This document shows positions 3,787 through 25,114 of a stretch of DNA of 33,170 bases, piece by piece; position 1 is the first letter of the stretch, and every line of letters starts with the position of its first letter. Source of the DNA: a virus (Duplodnaviria; Heunggongvirae; Uroviricota; Caudoviricetes); the IMG/VR virus record IMGVR_UViG_2541047926_000010. One strand, 5' to 3'. The translations under genes and the position numbers were made by a program. The notes under the pieces are model-generated. The model worked only from the letters and a program-made list of their open reading frames with translations, had not been told where the DNA came from and did not search any database.

Positions 3787-4136
3787 CAGCTGACCTTAAC
3801 CGGATATTTCCAGGTCTGCGGCGTTCCGCTCGCAGACGTGACGGTGATATGAAGCAGCATCCAGCCTTTTTGCCAGTGCTCTGCAGTAACGGAAATGGAC
3901 TGGGCGCGACCGTCGTCAATAATCGGTTGCAGGGCCTGCCGCGAATACTGCACCGCGAGTTGTTGAACGCGAGACACATCCTTTTCGCGGCGGAGTGTAT
4001 GCAAAAGAGAGCCCAGAGTTGGATCAGCCCACCATGAGCCAAGGGGCGTCATCAGCCGTAAGTAGACGGCATTCGCTAAAGAGTCTGAGCTGTCGCCGGT
4101 ATAATCGCCGGTCGTTGGATCAATCAACATTTCCAT
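3786..4136 (-). CDS. Mu gp46-like small baseplate protein
   Basis: 116 aa; synteny between spike and baseplate J genes. Confidence 0.65.
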   Translation of the reverse strand: MEMLIDPTTGDYTGDSSDSLANAVYLRLMTPLGSWWADPTLGSLLHTLRREKDVSRVQQLAVQYSRQALQPIIDDGRAQSISVTAEHWQKGWMLLHITVTSASGTPQTWKYPVKVS

Positions 4137-4189
4137 GCCGTAATACTACCGGCATGGAAATTTAAATTATCGGTGAAGGGGTTCAGTGG
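4137..4189 (-). promoter_or_regulatory. Candidate activator-dependent late promoter upstream of the gp46-like baseplate gene
   Basis: Minus-strand CCACTGAACCCCTTCACC (plus 4172-4189), identical to the copy upstream of the endolysin; 23-bp spacer to a -10-like TAGTAT. Confidence 0.45.
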
Positions 4190-7347: not shown

Positions 7348-9497
7348 TGCGGGCCTCCTGTTGAGCCGCGAACGGATTGTTCGCCGTTGTATTCATTAAC
7401 AGCTGATGCAATTTCACGTCCGTCTAATACCAGCTTTGTGGTGAGGTTAATTGGTTGTGATTTTTGTTGCTGCTGGGGCAGCAGATAAGACGGTACGCCT
7501 GTGGTTGCTGGTGTGTTTTGACCCATAGTGGCCGGTGAACTCCACCATGATTTGATCTCATCCACGGCATCCAGCAATCCGGGGCGGGCTTTTACTGCAT
7601 CCAGCATGCGTGCTGACTCACTGGAATAATTGTCGACCTTGAGTCTCGCACGCGCATCAGCATCGCCTCGCTCAACATGAACGAGCGGCGCATCCTGCAT
7701 GCCCTGGTAGAGTGCCAGCGGAGCAGCAACGCGCCCCAGAACTTTACCTGCACCACCCCGGATAGCGGACCAGGTGCGCCCCAGAGCAGTACCGCCAGCA
7801 GACGGAACTCCCCCTGCAGGAGAACCAGGCATTTTTATTCCGCCCCCCGTCAGGAAATTGAGCCCGGCAAAAGCTACAGCCGCTGCTGTCATGGCTTTAA
7901 TGCCAGTGGTGGCACCTGAAATAGCAGTTGTTAATTCAGGATATTCTTTAGCGTAATCGGTAAGTTTTGACGTCAAATCACCGTATAAATCGGCAATAGG
8001 TTTCATTGCGTCCTGTTCAGAGAACATTTTCTCAGATTCAAATTGTTGTGACTTAAAATCATTTGTTGATGACATCACATCAAAAGATGCAGCTCCAGCC
8101 CCAGCCGAATTCTCAGTTCCTTTTATTTGATCCTTTATAAACTCACGCTTCATTATATTTGTTTTCAAAGCAGTACTAGCTTGCTGGTCAGCAATTATTT
8201 TTGACGTGATTGAAGAAACAACAATATCCAAAGCAGCGAGGATATCGTTTTCTTTATCCGTACCTTTATATTTCTTTGCCTCGCCTCTTAGTTTTTGAAC
8301 TCTTTTATCTGCTGATACAATCCCCGATACGGCATTCATAACGATGTCTGGTGTACTTAACCCATTTGTCTTTTGCTCAGCCAAATAATCAATGTAACCA
8401 AGTGCCTTTCCACCTTTCCCTCTGAATTTATACTTCTTCAAAGTATTTTGAATATCAGCACTTGTGATTTTATCAAGTAAATTATTTACGTTAGTAGATG
8501 CAGCACTGTTATCACCTGCTGTTTCTGCATTTGCCTGTAATAAGGCTAATATCTTATCAAAATCACCAAGACCAGACATACCGATACTCTTAGCTTTGGT
8601 GAGCGTTAATGATAAAGATGATGCCATATCGGCAAGTTCATACTTGCCATTTTCTCCTGAACGAATCGACTTATCATAAACAGTAGGTAAGTCTTTCGGA
8701 TCAATGTCAAAGTTTTTTATAGCGCTGATACCAATTTTAGCCAGGTCTTGTGGGTTAGCACCTGATGCTGAAGCATAACGAGTAATATCAGGCAATATTT
8801 TCATAGCCGTCTTTTCATCAAGATTACCTGCAAACAGAGCATTCAGCGTATCCTGTGCAGCTTCAGGCGTACCGCCACCGTAGCGCACCGCATTGCGGAT
8901 AGCGTTATTGATAACGGGGATTTTTTTAATACGCTCAGGACCTGACAGCTCGTTATATGCAGTGTTAGCTATTTCTGCATTACGCCGTTCGTAAGCCATC
9001 TGACGCTGAACCGGGTCTTTTATGATCATACCTGCAGCGGTTAATCCACCGGTTACTGCTGCCACGGTTGAACCAGCAGCACGAAAGCGCTGCATGCGCG
9101 TCATTGAGTCATTCACGCCACCAAGTTCAGTCCGCAGCGTTTTGACCCTGTCAGTCATGGCCCTGAAAGCCCGATTCTGCTCATTCGCGGACAGCATGCC
9201 TGTGCGGGTAAGGCGGTTGTAGGCCGCCATGGTCTGCTGTATTTCACGCTGAATATCGCGCTCAGAACGAATACCAAGGGTAGATCGCGCCGAGCTGGCG
9301 CGACGGTATTCCTCAATCAGAGAACGGGAGGCACGAATCGCTGTGGTTGAGTTCTGCTGGCGGGATTTCGCCAGCTCGTCATCGGTCTTTTGCGCCGCTT
9401 TGGTATCACGGCTGATGCCCTGCAGTGCCTGCTTAAGCACTTTAGAGCCGGTATCACGGGCAAGCAGCTGCAGCGCCAGTTGTAAGTTACGCGCCAT
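7344..9497 (-). CDS. Tail tape measure protein
   Basis: 717 aa; Ala/Gly-rich helical protein downstream of the tail chaperone; ATG 9497-9495. Confidence 0.85.
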   Translation of the reverse strand: MARNLQLALQLLARDTGSKVLKQALQGISRDTKAAQKTDDELAKSRQQNSTTAIRASRSLIEEYRRASSARSTLGIRSERDIQREIQQTMAAYNRLTRTGMLSANEQNRAFRAMTDRVKTLRTELGGVNDSMTRMQRFRAAGSTVAAVTGGLTAAGMIIKDPVQRQMAYERRNAEIANTAYNELSGPERIKKIPVINNAIRNAVRYGGGTPEAAQDTLNALFAGNLDEKTAMKILPDITRYASASGANPQDLAKIGISAIKNFDIDPKDLPTVYDKSIRSGENGKYELADMASSLSLTLTKAKSIGMSGLGDFDKILALLQANAETAGDNSAASTNVNNLLDKITSADIQNTLKKYKFRGKGGKALGYIDYLAEQKTNGLSTPDIVMNAVSGIVSADKRVQKLRGEAKKYKGTDKENDILAALDIVVSSITSKIIADQQASTALKTNIMKREFIKDQIKGTENSAGAGAASFDVMSSTNDFKSQQFESEKMFSEQDAMKPIADLYGDLTSKLTDYAKEYPELTTAISGATTGIKAMTAAAVAFAGLNFLTGGGIKMPGSPAGGVPSAGGTALGRTWSAIRGGAGKVLGRVAAPLALYQGMQDAPLVHVERGDADARARLKVDNYSSESARMLDAVKARPGLLDAVDEIKSWWSSPATMGQNTPATTGVPSYLLPQQQQKSQPINLTTKLVLDGREIASAVNEYNGEQSVRGSTGGPQ

Positions 9498-14849: not shown

Positions 14850-15965
14850 TTATTTGAGGTATTTCGCGACGCTTTCCGGGTCATTGCCCATCATTGAGCA
14901 GATGGCCGGGTCAATCGCATCATCTTCAGCACCCTGTGACGGGCGTGACGGAAGGCCTGCAGGCGGTTGCCCCTGAGTCTGACTGGTAGTCAGTGCGGCA
15001 ATCTTTGGCGCTTTTTCGATAAAGGCGGTAAGACTGGCCGGATCGGATTTCGCCAGTGATGCAGCCCATTCCTGTTGCGCCGGAAGCAGACGACCGTCGC
15101 TGAGGGCAACCGTAATCAACGCTTCAGCCTGCTGCATGGCGAGTGCGGCGGTATTACCCGCACCGGCACGCTCTGTCGCCTGCTGAACGGCTGAATGCAT
15201 GACCTCCACCGAAACCCACTTAGCCGGGTCAGGCGTGTCGAGTTTCGCCGTCAGGTCGGCGATGCTCTGCGCGTTCTGGTTCAGGATATCCAGCAGACTG
15301 ACCGACGCCGCTGCAGTCCCCTGTCCACCGGAAATCATGGTGATGATTTTTTGCAGCTCAGCCATGATCTCTTCTTTCGTTGAGGCGGTTGGCAGATTGA
15401 GCATCCAGCGCAGGTTGCTCAGTAGCTCGTTGAGAAATTCTTCATCCATTTCGGTCTGACCCTCTGTGGTTAAATGCGCGGCCATCAGGGAGGCGGCAGC
15501 AAGTAACACTTCCTCCATCCCGTCGACCGCTGGTGTATTGGTCAGCGCGGCGTTGAGCAACTCCAGCACCTGACCGGTTTTGTCGTAAGAAAATACGGGG
15601 GAAATAAAGCGATACTCTTTCGCCTCGACCATCGCAGCCGCAGCGGCTGTCCACTCGACATCGATGGCGAACAAACCTTCACCGTTCCGCCACTCCAGCT
15701 TTTTGAAGAATGCAGCTGCAGGCGCAGGCAGACCGTTTTTAGCGGCCCGAAGGGTCTGGTGTTCGTAGTCCAGGACGTAGGGGGTGTCGCGGGCATCAGC
15801 TGCGGCAATAAGGCGCTCTGCAATTTCCCGCGTCATCAGCCAGGCGGCGCATTCGGTCGGACGCCCGTCACGGGCGCGGAATTCACCAGCCGGGAAGAGC
15901 TGGATGACACCGGGAGTGGCGGTGTTAATTTCCTGGGTGAGTGAAGCGATGAGTGTCTTTTTCAT
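14850..15965 (-). CDS. Head protease / scaffold protein, Mu I-like
   Basis: 371 aa; Mu I-like N-terminal region; synteny. Confidence 0.8.
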   Translation of the reverse strand: MKKTLIASLTQEINTATPGVIQLFPAGEFRARDGRPTECAAWLMTREIAERLIAAADARDTPYVLDYEHQTLRAAKNGLPAPAAAFFKKLEWRNGEGLFAIDVEWTAAAAAMVEAKEYRFISPVFSYDKTGQVLELLNAALTNTPAVDGMEEVLLAAASLMAAHLTTEGQTEMDEEFLNELLSNLRWMLNLPTASTKEEIMAELQKIITMISGGQGTAAASVSLLDILNQNAQSIADLTAKLDTPDPAKWVSVEVMHSAVQQATERAGAGNTAALAMQQAEALITVALSDGRLLPAQQEWAASLAKSDPASLTAFIEKAPKIAALTTSQTQGQPPAGLPSRPSQGAEDDAIDPAICSMMGNDPESVAKYLK

Positions 15966-16020
15966 GGTGCCGACGATACGGCACCACTGGGGGGGAGGTT
16001 CAGATGAAGAGGTTCAGTGG
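15966..16020 (-). promoter_or_regulatory. Candidate activator-dependent late promoter upstream of the protease/scaffold gene
   Basis: Minus-strand CCACTGAACCTCTTCATC (plus 16003-16020; 16 of 18 match to the other two copies); 23-bp spacer to -10-like TATCGT; 7-bp-stem hairpin GGTGCCG/CGGCACC (15966-15985) next to the ATG. Confidence 0.45.
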
Positions 16021-16021
16021 A

Positions 16022-16231
16022 TTATCGCTGAGGATCGTTTTCTTTGGTTGTCGGCTTATCGGGTTTAGCAGACTGACGCTTCTGATGCCGACGGGCAAAG
16101 TATCGGTCAGTGAACCACTCAGCAACCTTTATAACCAGGCCCCCAAAGATGCCAATGAAAACCCACTGCTGCGGGGTGAAATAATCAAGGAAAGCTTTGA
16201 ATGTGTCCAGTTGCTCGCTCCCGTAATGCAT
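16022..16231 (-). CDS. Doubtful small ORF (69 aa, one predicted transmembrane helix) inside the G-I gap
   Basis: ATG 16231-16229 with weak ribosome-binding site; hydrophobic WVFIGIFGGLVIKVAEWF; an equally long antisense ORF exists, so coding status is uncertain. Confidence 0.25.
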   Translation of the reverse strand: MHYGSEQLDTFKAFLDYFTPQQWVFIGIFGGLVIKVAEWFTDRYFARRHQKRQSAKPDKPTTKENDPQR

Positions 16232-16347
16232 TTATGAGCCCAGACCTTTTTAAACCGCTTTTAAAAACGTCTGAATACCTTCTGGCCGAATCACTCTAGC
16301 ACAATCAGACTGAACGCGTCACAGCGCCTTACAGGACGAATTTGCCC

Positions 16348-16890
16348 TCAGTCTAAAATACGTTTCAGATATTGCTCAGCCGTACTCTCCATCTTCTCCA
16401 CGTCATCTTCGGTGAGATGCAGGAAAGGACGCGCGGGCATCTTAATTTTATACGCCCCGATAGTGTTCCACTGCTCAAAGTTGGAACGGGATTTTTTAAC
16501 GAACCGGTTACCCACTGAACCATCCTTGTTCTGGCGGTAGTAGGCTTTCTGGCTGCGGGCCGGAATGCTGATTTCCCCACCTTCCTGATGAATGCGGGCG
16601 TATTTCACATTGGTCCCGACCGTCGCATCATCATTCGTGCTGTACTGCGTGATACTCGCTGCCAGTCGACCGCTCTTCTGTAGAATTTTACCGCCCCGGC
16701 GCTGACGGGCATATGCCGGGCTCCAGCCCATCCACGCAGGCCGCCCCTGTTGCGCGAAGTTTTCTTCGACGGCATCCCCCATGGCAGCGGCCATCTCACG
16801 CATCAGGGGGGCGCGGTTTTCCAGCTTTTTAATGAGTTCACCGAGTGAGCGCTCAAAGTCAGCAATGTCATACCTGATGGCGTAGCTCAT
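16348..16890 (-). CDS. Virion morphogenesis protein, Mu G-like
   Basis: 180 aa; synteny between the Mu F-like and Mu I-like genes. Confidence 0.8.
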   Translation of the reverse strand: MSYAIRYDIADFERSLGELIKKLENRAPLMREMAAAMGDAVEENFAQQGRPAWMGWSPAYARQRRGGKILQKSGRLAASITQYSTNDDATVGTNVKYARIHQEGGEISIPARSQKAYYRQNKDGSVGNRFVKKSRSNFEQWNTIGAYKIKMPARPFLHLTEDDVEKMESTAEQYLKRILD

Positions 16891-18173: not shown

Positions 18174-19707
18174 ACAGCGCCTGCTTTATCAGCTGCTGCA
18201 GCTGCGTATCATCCAGCTGAGGGTAACTCGCAGCAATGATATCCAGAGCCTCATCAGGGCTTTGCCCCTTGCTCAGGGCCGAGACCAGCGGCGCAATCAG
18301 CTTATCCATGGCTTTCGCGATGCTCTCCCCTGGCGACGTGGCGCTGTCCAGCGCATCCTGTGCAGGGTCAACAACCTCGCCCGTAGTGCTCAGTGCCGCA
18401 AAATGGCGGAATACCGGCGATGTGCTCAGCCCCACCGGAGAGGGAGCAGCAGGCGGTGTCAGCACAGCTTCGTTCTCTTTTGGTACCGGAATCCCGACCT
18501 TTTTGTGTATCCATGACGTCGGGATAGTGTCCATCCCGGCGCGTACCAGCGCGGAAACACCATTGGCGAAGGTTTCAATGCTCTCCAGCTCACGGGTATC
18601 AAATACCAGACGCGGCTGACGGCGCGGGCTGACGTTATAACCATTAATGGCCAGTAACATACGAATGAAGCCACGATAAAACCCTTCCAGCTGGCGGGCA
18701 TCAGCGGTCAGCAGATCGTGGCGGACTTCGTTATGCACATTACCAAGGGCATTTGTTGAGGACTTGCCGTCCGCCTGTGACGTCAGCGTGCCGCCGAGAA
18801 TGACCTTTGATTCGGTACGTTCGCACCAGTTAATCATCGCCATGAAAGGATCGGACTGCCCCTCGGCGGCATCCTTAAATTCGATTTTGGTGTTATCAGG
18901 GATGATCCCCGAGGCGTTATGACCGATGCTGACCAGCGCCTCCATGAGTTTATCCTGCTCATCCTGACTGGCCCCGGACATATACGACCCGATGCGCGGT
19001 GGCAGCCCGTAGATTTCCAGGAACTCAGCGAGATCGCGCACGCTGTAGTTTTTAAACAGATAAGGCCAGACCAGCACGCGGTATAAGCCGGACTGCGCGA
19101 TATAGCCTGACTTGGCGTTGTGCGTATGCACCAGCCAGCCAAACGGCCAGAGTTCTTCTCCCCCCAGCGTGCCGGTGTTAAGACGCACCTCATCCCCGGC
19201 TTCCGGCGTGGTACAGAACCAGCGATGCGGACGCAGTTTGATTTTGACAGGCAGCCACAGATTGCCGTCAAGCTCCCACTTTTCAATCTCCTGAGCGGAA
19301 AAGCCATGCCCGATAGCTTCAGCCGCATTCAGGGTAATATCTTCCATCTCCTGAAGGTCAGCGAACCAGCTGGCCACCATCGCGGCGATCTGCTTTTCTT
19401 CCGCCGTCGCGTTCGGCGGTGGCTCGATGCTCCAGTCCAGAGTGAGCAGCGCATTCTTACGCTTGGCCATTTCAGAAAAGATATGCCCGTCCCGCTCAAC
19501 CATATCTTCGAAAAGGTCAGCCTGAGCCGCTAGGTCGCCGCGTTCAGCCGCTTCCAGCAGGCGAGGAAGCCGGGCAATAGTCATTCCCCGTGAGGGGTGA
19601 GTTGGCCAGTCACGCTGCAGCTCGAACGTGCGGGAGGTCTGGGGGGCTTTAAGCACCTCTTTATTAAGCGGGCGACCATACTGGTCAAGAATCTGAACCA
19701 TTATCAA
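18133..19707 (-). CDS. Portal protein (Mu gp29-like, DUF935-like)
   Basis: 524 aa; directly downstream of terminase large subunit. Confidence 0.85.
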   Translation of the reverse strand: MIMVQILDQYGRPLNKEVLKAPQTSRTFELQRDWPTHPSRGMTIARLPRLLEAAERGDLAAQADLFEDMVERDGHIFSEMAKRKNALLTLDWSIEPPPNATAEEKQIAAMVASWFADLQEMEDITLNAAEAIGHGFSAQEIEKWELDGNLWLPVKIKLRPHRWFCTTPEAGDEVRLNTGTLGGEELWPFGWLVHTHNAKSGYIAQSGLYRVLVWPYLFKNYSVRDLAEFLEIYGLPPRIGSYMSGASQDEQDKLMEALVSIGHNASGIIPDNTKIEFKDAAEGQSDPFMAMINWCERTESKVILGGTLTSQADGKSSTNALGNVHNEVRHDLLTADARQLEGFYRGFIRMLLAINGYNVSPRRQPRLVFDTRELESIETFANGVSALVRAGMDTIPTSWIHKKVGIPVPKENEAVLTPPAAPSPVGLSTSPVFRHFAALSTTGEVVDPAQDALDSATSPGESIAKAMDKLIAPLVSALSKGQSPDEALDIIAASYPQLDDTQLQQLIKQALFVSEVWGRLNAES

Positions 19708-23472: not shown

Positions 23473-24113
23473 AGCGCCGCCTTAGCGACATTCAGCCGCG
23501 CCACGCGGTCAGCCTGACCTTCAGCCGGAGGGTTGATACGCCGGGTTACGGCCAGAAAATTGCCTTTGTCAGCCAGCTCGTTGCAGCCATTTGCCTTCCA
23601 GTACCAGGCAGCGCTGCGGGCTGCGTTGAGATACTCCAGTAACAAATCGGGATTCGCGATGAGATCGAGGCCCAGCGCCTTACCGCAAAGGCGGTAATTA
23701 TCGCGCAGGGTAATCTGAATCAGGCCACGTCCGCGAAAGCGCCAGCCATCGCCTGATGCTTCATTACCGTTACCCCCCTGATTTGCGTAAACATAATTGG
23801 CCATTTTTTCAGGATTACGGGTATAGCGGCGGGCAAATTCCACCTCTCTCGGCTCGATAATACGATTCTTATTGAGATCGAAGTCGCTGCGGAAAATACG
23901 CGCCACGCGCTCAGCATCTGAGTAATAGAGATTTTCACTGAGCCGACTGAAACCCGCGCTCTCATGGCCGGTTTGAGCAATAAAGGCGGCAAGTCGGGCG
24001 GGTGTATTAATTTCGAATTCAGCGGTGGCTTTACTGAATGGTTCAAACCAGCGTTGCGCCATTACTGGCGAAAGGCCTGCGGCTCGCTGAAATTGTGGGA
24101 GTGTTAAAAGCAT
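23469..24113 (-). CDS. Endolysin, glycoside hydrolase family 19 (chitinase-like)
   Basis: 214 aa; GH19-like motifs FRGRGLIQITLRDNY and AAWYW; no N-terminal signal-anchor-release segment. Confidence 0.8.
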   Translation of the reverse strand: MLLTLPQFQRAAGLSPVMAQRWFEPFSKATAEFEINTPARLAAFIAQTGHESAGFSRLSENLYYSDAERVARIFRSDFDLNKNRIIEPREVEFARRYTRNPEKMANYVYANQGGNGNEASGDGWRFRGRGLIQITLRDNYRLCGKALGLDLIANPDLLLEYLNAARSAAWYWKANGCNELADKGNFLAVTRRINPPAEGQADRVARLNVAKAAL

Positions 24114-24190
24114 AACGCCATCCGGTTAAAAAGGAATGGCGTCAGTATTTCATCGGGTTAGGTGAATAATCAGGTGAAGGGGTTCAGTGG
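24114..24190 (-). promoter_or_regulatory. Candidate activator-dependent late promoter upstream of the endolysin gene
   Basis: Minus-strand CCACTGAACCCCTTCACC (plus 24173-24190); 23-bp spacer to -10-like AATACT; imperfect hairpin 24115-24142 directly before the ATG. Confidence 0.5.
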
Positions 24191-24191
24191 T

Positions 24192-24671
24192 TTATTCAGT
24201 CACATCTATTATTATGGGTTCATTCGATTCTGGTTCAACATCTTTTTTCACCATGTATTCCCCCTTTGCTTTAGCTTCATCAATCAATGGGAGATATCTA
24301 TAAACAATTTTCCATACTTCTTCATCTTGTTTAAAGTCAAGATTGCGGCATGCTTGCCTCTCATTCATAGGGTCTGTTGAGTTCATTTTATCAGGATTGG
24401 AAACCAATAAAATTTTCCTCCATGCGCAAGATTTCGTTTCGTTTTTCTTTATGAAATCAAACCCGCCCGTTTTAGAACTGCCTGTCTGATATGCAAAAGC
24501 TAAATTCCTTTGTGCCTGATAGCCGTCTTTAATCGCCGCGTTAATGAAATCATTCTCAGTCTTAATCGATCCCTGTGCTTGCTCAGGAATATTTAGTTTT
24601 GTTAATTGGCCGTTGTTAGCCATGCTGTTAAAGCTAATTAAAATACAACCGGCAGCAATCAAACATTTCAT
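24192..24671 (-). CDS. Secreted protein of unknown function (AT-rich moron)
   Basis: 159 aa; Sec-type signal MKCLIAAGCILISFNSMA; AGGAG 5 nt upstream of the ATG; by eye clearly more AT-rich than the flanking phage genes. Confidence 0.65.
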   Translation of the reverse strand: MKCLIAAGCILISFNSMANNGQLTKLNIPEQAQGSIKTENDFINAAIKDGYQAQRNLAFAYQTGSSKTGGFDFIKKNETKSCAWRKILLVSNPDKMNSTDPMNERQACRNLDFKQDEEVWKIVYRYLPLIDEAKAKGEYMVKKDVEPESNEPIIIDVTE

Positions 24672-24679
24672 AACTACTC

Positions 24680-25114
24680 CTAAAAAAGTGAGTTTTGTGT
24701 TGAGGTTCCATTACTCTTTTCCGCAGCAAGAAGCTGCCAACCGAAGCGATCACTAAAACCATACTTAGGGCAAAGAAAGGTCATGGCCATAAGAGAGGAT
24801 GAACCTTGTTCACGCACTTCGGCGAACTCGGCGAGAAAGCGGCGGTTGCGTAATTCACGAAGGGCACGATCACAGCGCGGTAAATAGAGAACTTCTCCGC
24901 CGAAATTCTTGATGAGTAATTGGGTTTTATCATCGCCGATAGTATTGCGCAGGAGGGCTGCGCGGCTGGCCCCCATAGCGCGGAGGCCTTTACCTATCGG
25001 GAACGTGGTGCCACCAAAAGCAGAAAGAAGCTGCTCGGTCGCCGGGAAGCCTATCAGGTCAGCTATTTGAATCACTGCTGATGGCAGCAGCTCCGTTACC
25101 TGTTCCAGATTCAT
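24680..25114 (-). CDS. Mor/C-family transcriptional activator
   Basis: ATG 25114 (MNLEQVTELLP; track ORF begins upstream at 25150); GGEVLYLPR segment resembles the Mor/C conserved core; directly downstream of gemA. Confidence 0.75.
   Translation of the reverse strand: MNLEQVTELLPSAVIQIADLIGFPATEQLLSAFGGTTFPIGKGLRAMGASRAALLRNTIGDDKTQLLIKNFGGEVLYLPRCDRALRELRNRRFLAEFAEVREQGSSSLMAMTFLCPKYGFSDRFGWQLLAAEKSNGTSTQNSLF

Follow-up and report, generated by a model that had tools for sequence, protein, structure and literature searches.

The window, meaning the whole 33,170-nucleotide stretch of viral DNA analyzed here (IMG/VR record IMGVR_UViG_2541047926_000010), is a Mu-like prophage read on the minus strand. 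Its early region encodes a Mu-type transposase and a B-like ATPase, followed by GemA and then a Mor-family protein (24680-25114), and its late region encodes a GH19 endolysin, homologues of Mu F and G, the head protease/scaffold protein I, the major head protein T, and the baseplate proteins gp45 and gp46. Upstream of gene I lie a 19-bp box, a spacer, a -10-like hexamer, and an inverted repeat that brackets the hexamer, and all of these elements are likewise read on the minus strand (Table 1). The ATG at 15965-15963 is the true start of gene I, as the N-termini of seven homologues, Mu I included, align within two residues, and PGAP (the NCBI annotation pipeline) places the same start in a 98%-identical E. 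coli prophage.

Table 1. Coordinates of the gene I upstream elements, their two further copies, and the candidate activator gene in the window
Feature	Position	Strand	Remarks
19-bp box CCACTGAACCTCTTCATCT	16020-16002	minus	Proposed Mor/C-family late-activator site
23-nt spacer GAACCTCCCCCCCAGTGGTGCCG	16001-15979	minus	Between box and hexamer; C7 run at 15995-15989
Hairpin 5' arm GUGGUGCCG	15987-15979	minus	Conserved core 15985-15979
-10-like hexamer TATCGT	15978-15973	minus	Also the hairpin loop; xAxxxT kept in relatives
Hairpin 3' arm CGGCACCAU	15972-15964	minus	Also promoter discriminator; includes A and U of the start codon
Predicted transcription start	15965-15966	minus	7th-8th nt after hexamer, C/A (pyrimidine-purine) context; predicted from geometry
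Gene I (head protease/scaffold, 371 aa)	14850-15965	minus	PF10123, E = 3e-93; Mu I homologue
Second copy, whole element	4129-4189	minus	Same design as gene I site
Second copy, parts	Box 4189-4171; TAGTAT 4148-4143; ATG 4136	minus	22-nt spacer; 6 nt between hexamer and ATG of gp46 homologue
Third copy, whole element	24111-24190	minus	Box match and endolysin gene
Third copy, parts	Box 24190-24172; AATACT 24149-24144; ATG 24113	minus	22-nt spacer; ATG of GH19 endolysin gene
Mor/C-family activator gene (144 aa)	24680-25114	minus	From ATG 25114; presumed reader of the box

Three copies of the box at late operon heads

The first-pass annotation had described the box upstream of gene I as a 16-of-18 copy of a repeated late-promoter-like motif, and the comparison bears this out: it differs at two of 18 positions (also two of 19) from the copy upstream of the endolysin gene and at two of 18 (three of 19) from the copy upstream of gp46. 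With up to three mismatches allowed, the box occurs three times in the window and not once in 100 shuffles, and the genes downstream of the three boxes (endolysin, I, and baseplate gp46) are heads of late operons. Klebsiella phage ST405-OXA48phi1.1 (L146) carries a variant of the box, CACTGAAGCCCnTCA, at the same three genome positions. The register of the three sites was set by ungapped comparison anchored on the box, as MAFFT left the downstream parts out of register. Within the box there is an imperfect dyad, made up of CACTGAA (16019-16013), four further nucleotides (16012-16009), and TTCATCT (16008-16002); its consensus, ACTGAA-N4-TTCAGT, is perfect in L207 and L208 (TACTGAAGCCGTTCAGTA) and imperfect in the window.

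Two further repeats reported earlier from the same region were also recovered. The duplication of TGAACCTC is in fact one of a 9-mer, CTGAACCTC, present inside the box (16017-16009) and again 14 bp downstream (16003-15995), a direct repeat that arises in 2.5% of shuffles, and CCACTG (16020-16015) does form an inverted pair with CAGTGG (15989-15984). Both features are probably incidental, judging by alignments with related sequences, because both fade in relatives beyond ~85% identity. The tetranucleotide CTGA, directly after the box, is shared by many enterobacterial lineages. The 9-bp repeat might offer a higher-order activator complex one more half-site; Mu C has been reported to form a tetramer (preprint 10.1101/2025.05.02.651988).

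Two small open reading frames on the minus strand end 1 nt from a box. The first, in the gap between G and I (16022-16231), would encode a 69-aa protein that has a single transmembrane segment and shows similarity to P21 holin S (PF04971, E = 1.3e-8) and to a family of holins in PHROG. PGAP has an opposite-strand open reading frame there in the 98%-identical E. coli prophage, and the 69-aa frame is absent from Kosakonia-type relatives. In Pseudomonas relatives, the gap between G and I is a site of anti-CRISPR genes (cf. PMC9410906). The second frame (24192-24671), of 159 aa, lies between the activator gene and the endolysin box; its product has a signal-peptide-like N-terminus (MKCLIAAGCILISFNSMANN) and matches a PHROG family of unknown function.

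Geometry of the proposed promoter and the candidate activator

Relatives were gathered via the I protein, independently of the DNA motif, yielding 102 loci, 75 of which have a recognizable box within 120 nt upstream of gene I; with redundancy removed, 33 sequences remain. Their upstream regions all show the same layout, with xAxxxT 22-23 nt from the box, ATG a further 6-7 nt on, and a pyrimidine directly before the ATG. The I proteins of these relatives share 45-99% identity, and the DNA on either side of the box is unrelated from group to group. An exact 15-mer scan of viral contigs for the box returned 120 loci, adding sites of the gp46 and endolysin types; about one-third of the 120 were chance matches with neither the hexamer nor the ATG pattern and were set aside. 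Counting gp46 sites, which share the gene I design, the box-hexamer-ATG layout occurs in ~70 distinct lineages, and it is also found in Pseudomonas phage MP38 (L145, NC_011611) at 19061-19116. A literature search for a described motif of this kind, or for leaderless late genes in Mu-like phages, returned nothing relevant.

It had been argued beforehand that absence of the motif from this position in related phages would speak against a promoter; the motif is present there, with its geometry kept in 33 of 33. The constancy of this geometry, the PF10123 match of the downstream gene, and the further copies before the endolysin and gp46 genes support the proposal of the first-pass annotation that the element is a late-promoter-like copy upstream of a protease/scaffold gene. 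The claim that its spacing is the same 23 bp as at the other two sites did not hold in the common register, in which the gene I spacer measures 23 nt and the other two copies have 22 nt. The nine closest relatives, among them the 98%-identical E. coli prophage, all have 22 nt as well. The excess corresponds to one additional C in CCCCCCC (15995-15989), where the nine relatives read CCCCGC or CCCCCCCGC, and this extra base may be a true variant or may have arisen by slippage or sequencing error. A spacer 1 bp longer than in close relatives might weaken the gene I copy in the window; spacers of 23 nt occur naturally in seven of the 33 non-redundant relatives.

A scan of the gene I site for the sigma-70 consensus identified no promoter and no -35/-10 pair. 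The hexamer TATCGT is recognizable, and no -35-like hexamer accompanies it, GAACCT located 17 bp upstream matching TTGACA at only one of six positions. From the dyad center to the first base of the hexamer the distance is 31.5 nt in relatives and 32.5 nt in the window; if the hexamer is taken as -12 to -7, the dyad would be centered at -43.5 (relatives) or -44.5 (window), and the 19-mer would span -53 to -35. Mu C recognizes a 16-bp imperfect dyad centered at -43.5, and the Mu promoter Plys needs bases -52 to -34 (PMC2582627).

The presumed reader of the box is encoded by the only Mor/C gene found in the window, located after gemA. Its product matches Pfam Mor (E = 1.4e-7; 31.9 bits against a curated cut-off of 24.9) and PHROG 836, "late transcriptional activator" (E = 3.6e-38), and its homologues are annotated as late activators in Mu-like phages of Pseudomonas, Haemophilus, Mannheimia, and Ralstonia. 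BLASTP against Mu C gave no significant similarity (E = 0.045), with only the conserved GG..Y.P linker matched, and a search of PDB sequences with the protein gave no match. Binding of this protein to the box is assumed here. The presence of a single Mor/C gene suggests, from gene content, that the transcription cascade may have two steps rather than three. The C-terminus of the activator, ...TQNSLF, deviates from the beta-clamp-binding consensus QL[SD]LF at position 2 alone, as is also the case for the MuC motifs QHDLF and QPDLF (PMC12867686).

The likeness to the late promoters of Mu lies in the architecture: a Mor/C-family activator, a -10 hexamer with no -35 hexamer, an imperfect dyad that would be centered near -43.5 (in the geometry-based numbering used here), and several copies at late operon heads, one of them between G and I. 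The sequences of the boxes, in contrast, are unrelated, the Mu C box being CCATAACCCC and the present one CACTGAACCyCTTCA. An alignment with the Mu PI region, proposed in the first-pass annotation, revealed no shared box, as Mu PI has CATAACCCC, and no copy of the box was found in the Mu genome. Because of this mutual lack of box similarity, the activator of the clade would be expected to have a binding specificity other than that of Mu C. Mu PI was accordingly dropped as a sequence template, having no homologous box, and retained as an architectural one only. Other differences are that the Mu promoter PP lies inside gene N, upstream of P, whereas the copy in question here precedes gp46, and that only one Mor/C gene was found in the window.

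The gene I start codon and a predicted leaderless mRNA

Between the hexamer and the ATG of gene I there are 7 nt, filled by CGGCACC (15972-15966), and the gap is 6-7 nt in relatives. Because the gap is so short, the A of the ATG is the seventh or eighth base past the hexamer, which is the normal position for transcription to start. A leader cannot fit between this -10 hexamer and the ATG, a consequence that had not been drawn previously. Mu PI differs in this respect, with a leader of ~24 nt that carries an AGGA Shine-Dalgarno sequence. Gene I is without a Shine-Dalgarno sequence: its predicted pairing with the 16S rRNA anti-Shine-Dalgarno sequence (-2.8 kcal/mol) is among the weakest of 40 open reading frames in the window, with -3.2 kcal/mol for gp46 and -6 to -13 kcal/mol for most prophage genes. 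Over 41 non-redundant lineages the median is -1.5 kcal/mol, and 40 of these 41 have ATG as the start codon. Folding of the predicted mRNA gives no structure over its first 50 nt (-0.4 kcal/mol, z = +1.3). A -10 hexamer adjoining the start codon is an accepted signature of leaderless genes (PMC3160421, PMC3898074, PMC12340547, PMC4007540). Since gene I also has no Shine-Dalgarno sequence, we infer from these sequence features that the mRNA from its own promoter is probably leaderless and starts at the AUG.

The resemblance to the leaderless genes of Actinobacteria and Deinococcus-Thermus comprises a TAnnnT hexamer 6-7 nt before the AUG, no Shine-Dalgarno sequence, and near-universal use of AUG. 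The present case differs in that the hosts are Gram-negative Proteobacteria, in which leaderless genes are rare, that the promoter would be activator dependent, and that the start codon lies within an inverted repeat. The lambda cI mRNA transcribed from PRM is a leaderless precedent. Leaderless translation is usually inefficient in enterobacteria and protease/scaffold proteins are made in quantity, which counts against a leaderless gene I.

The equivalent gp46 site has a GTG start in two cases, L090 and Klebsiella phage ST405-OXA48phi1.1 (L146 29748-29802). GUG initiates poorly on leaderless mRNA. These two starts are awkward for the proposal and would argue against a strict dependence on leaderless initiation. 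They lend some weight to a reading in which gene I is expressed mainly from a long polycistronic late RNA by Shine-Dalgarno-independent internal initiation, with the box and hexamer not being its promoter and the box having some other role, and the lack of a detected terminator upstream fits this as well. Nonetheless, we regard such expression as very improbable: the box-hexamer-ATG geometry is fixed within ~1 nt over ~70 lineages and matches that of Mor/C promoters, the box is found only before late operons, and an AUG set against a -16 kcal/mol hairpin without a Shine-Dalgarno sequence would be a poor internal start.

For the MP38 protease, the box-hexamer-ATG design points to a start at 19114 (MEKNRLLVAIAA...), which aligns with other I proteins; the RefSeq start is at 19240, 42 codons downstream.

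The hairpin around the hexamer and proposed promoter-of-origin expression

The 7-bp stem that had been noted as ending directly at the ATG was found as described, with GGTGCCG (15985-15979) and CGGCACC (15972-15966) bracketing TATCGT and adjoining the start codon. Folded as RNA, the stem grows to nine pairs (15987-15979 with 15972-15964) and reaches into the start codon to include its A and U, at -16.4 kcal/mol compared with -7.3 +/- 2.3 for dinucleotide shuffles (z = -4.0; none of 200 shuffles as good). All 10 closest sequences retain the seven core pairs; a compensatory change (CG to UA) is seen once and a wobble change twice. Such column counts were restricted to these 10; for the whole clade, in which stem register and loop length vary between lineages, per-sequence shuffle z-scores were used. 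In a set of 48 non-redundant segments running from promoter to ATG, folding energies average -10.8 kcal/mol and those of shuffles -5.6, with a mean z of -2.59 and 77% of segments at z < -1.64 (Wilcoxon p ~1e-12). The arms themselves vary by lineage (TGGTGCCG/CGGCACCA, TGGTGCTG/CAGCACCA, TGCTGC/GCAGCA, TGCCGA/TCGGCA, ACACC/GGTGT, CCATGCCCCG/CGGGGCATGG) and also among the three sites of one phage. By these folding predictions, the hairpin is conserved as a structure and not as a sequence. A shared protein operator was excluded, given that the arms differ both between lineages and between the three sites of one phage. The end of the 3' arm falls between -3 and +3 of the start-codon A in nearly all lineages.

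The inverted repeat of a real promoter could also act as DNA, by aiding or restraining melting of the -10 and discriminator region (for instance by transient hairpin or cruciform extrusion) or through silencing by a G+C-rich discriminator when the activator is absent. The repeat brackets the hexamer exactly, its 3' arm is the discriminator, it folds as DNA too (-9.6 kcal/mol, z = -4.5), and Mu C has been reported to affect promoter DNA conformation and open-complex formation (PMC4461284). However, stems of 5-9 bp are short for cruciform extrusion, and dinucleotide shuffles that keep the G+C content fold far worse. Internal mismatches in the best stems comprise eight G.T, one A.C, and seven of other types. 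The bias toward G.T points to the sense strand and fits a single strand or RNA rather than duplex symmetry, with the asymmetry between G.T and A.C resting on only nine cases (two-sided binomial ~0.04). Furthermore, the hairpin of one subclass of endolysin-type promoters has a T-run, a signal that works only as RNA. A role as DNA thus seems to us distinctly unlikely.

The other two sites of the window also have hairpins. At gp46, 12 bp (4161-4150 with 4140-4129, minus strand) enclose the hexamer and cover the AUG within 4129-4161, forming the strongest hairpin of the three (-19.7 kcal/mol, z = -5.75), the 3' arm of which holds the whole AUG and a G. At the endolysin site, the stem (24144-24134 with 24123-24113; -15 kcal/mol, z = -3.5) has a 5' arm that starts at the end of the hexamer. 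All 19 non-redundant lineages that have this box at an endolysin-type promoter show a 5' arm directly following the hexamer, so that a transcription start 7-8 nt downstream would fall inside this arm. In the subclass with a T-run (L033, L034, L036, L051, L065, L081, L110, and L132), the order is stem, T-run, GGGGGA (a Shine-Dalgarno sequence), and ATG, and the hairpin is, by its sequence, a predicted terminator that only read-through RNA could form.

At gene I, the 5' arm lies upstream of the hexamer, and the hairpin could therefore exist only in RNA entering from upstream. A terminator scan of the minus strand from 24113 to 16020 revealed no convincing intrinsic terminator between the endolysin promoter and the gene I site, which makes such read-through plausible. 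The hairpin itself resembles a Rho-independent terminator in being a G+C-rich stem-loop at the end of the upstream gene and differs in having no T-run; as the stem is followed by ATGAAAAAG and is unflagged by the terminator scan, this identity was rejected. An Rfam scan of 15700-16400 returned only sub-threshold chance matches (UPD-PK2, 24.7 bits against 32; isrG). In read-through RNA, the hairpin may instead be a 3'-end stabilizer, a processing site, or a polymerase pause between the upstream late operon and the I operon, as suggested by the stable G+C-rich stem at an operon boundary and by related promoters that have a full terminator at the same place. We consider this unlikely, since neither a T-run nor a terminator call accompanies the stem, and the tie between the 3' arm and the start codon (-3 to +3) would be needless for a simple 3'-end stabilizer.

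The reading that we favor, with some confidence, is that the element is the gene I late promoter of a Mu-like prophage, equivalent to Mu PI, that it yields a leaderless mRNA, and that the hairpin blocks read-through translation. The Mor/C-family activator would bind CACTGAA-N4-TTCAnnn, centered ~44-45 bp upstream of the start, in place of a -35 hexamer, and host sigma-70 RNA polymerase would take TATCGT as the -10 element. Transcription would begin at the A of the ATG or 1 nt before it, giving a leaderless transcript, 5'-AUGAAAAAG..., that is predicted to be unstructured, has no Shine-Dalgarno sequence, and would be unable to form the inverted repeat around the hexamer. RNA reading through from the upstream late genes would, by contrast, carry a 9-bp, -16 kcal/mol hairpin running into the AUG, which most likely stops that RNA from initiating gene I translation. 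The outcome would be translation dependent on promoter of origin, a logic known for the T4 genes e, soc, 49, and I-TevI.

In those T4 genes, a hairpin covers the translation start in longer RNAs, the late promoter lies inside it, and the late RNAs lack the 5' arm (PMC3014915). At gene I, too, the predicted hairpin takes in the AUG, the promoter hexamer lies inside, and any possible start would be downstream of the 5' arm (15987-15979). The two differ in that T4 late promoters (TATAAATA) are read by gp55/gp33 and T4 late RNAs keep a leader with a Shine-Dalgarno sequence, whereas here the loop consists of the hexamer and the transcript would lack a leader. Moreover, the masked RNAs of T4 are early or middle, whereas here the upstream genes are themselves late. 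The temporal rationale for silencing that applies to T4 e is therefore weak at PI, as the portal, F, and G genes upstream are also late genes. In Mu itself, PI has a 7-bp inverted repeat (9027-9033 with 9044-9050 in L001; z = -3.4 for a 53-nt segment), the 5' arm of which ends at about the published start site, and the nesting of the promoter in the repeat is common to both.

Extended beyond the window, the interpretation becomes more tentative, and we put it at a little under an even chance: a clade-wide promoter-of-origin switch in Mu-like phages of Proteobacteria (enterobacterial prophages, Pseudomonas D3112/MP38-like phages, and others), in which leaderless late mRNAs of I and gp46 arise from activator-dependent promoters nested in hairpins. 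Only the promoters' own transcripts would be translated or, at lysis promoters, escape termination, and read-through RNA would be silenced. Such a switch would combine Mor/C activation, leaderless initiation, and T4-like masking.

Should the transcription start be confirmed, abundant structural genes of phages infecting E. coli and related bacteria would be translated from leaderless mRNA, a mode considered rare and weak in these hosts, and these genes would offer a natural test system for leaderless initiation in enterobacteria that can be switched by an activator. The interpretation, if true, would also explain why gene callers misplace protease starts, as for the RefSeq start in MP38, and would define a DNA site for a large uncharacterized branch of the Mor/C family. 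A promoter inside a hairpin would then insulate its operon from upstream transcription, at the level of either translation or termination.
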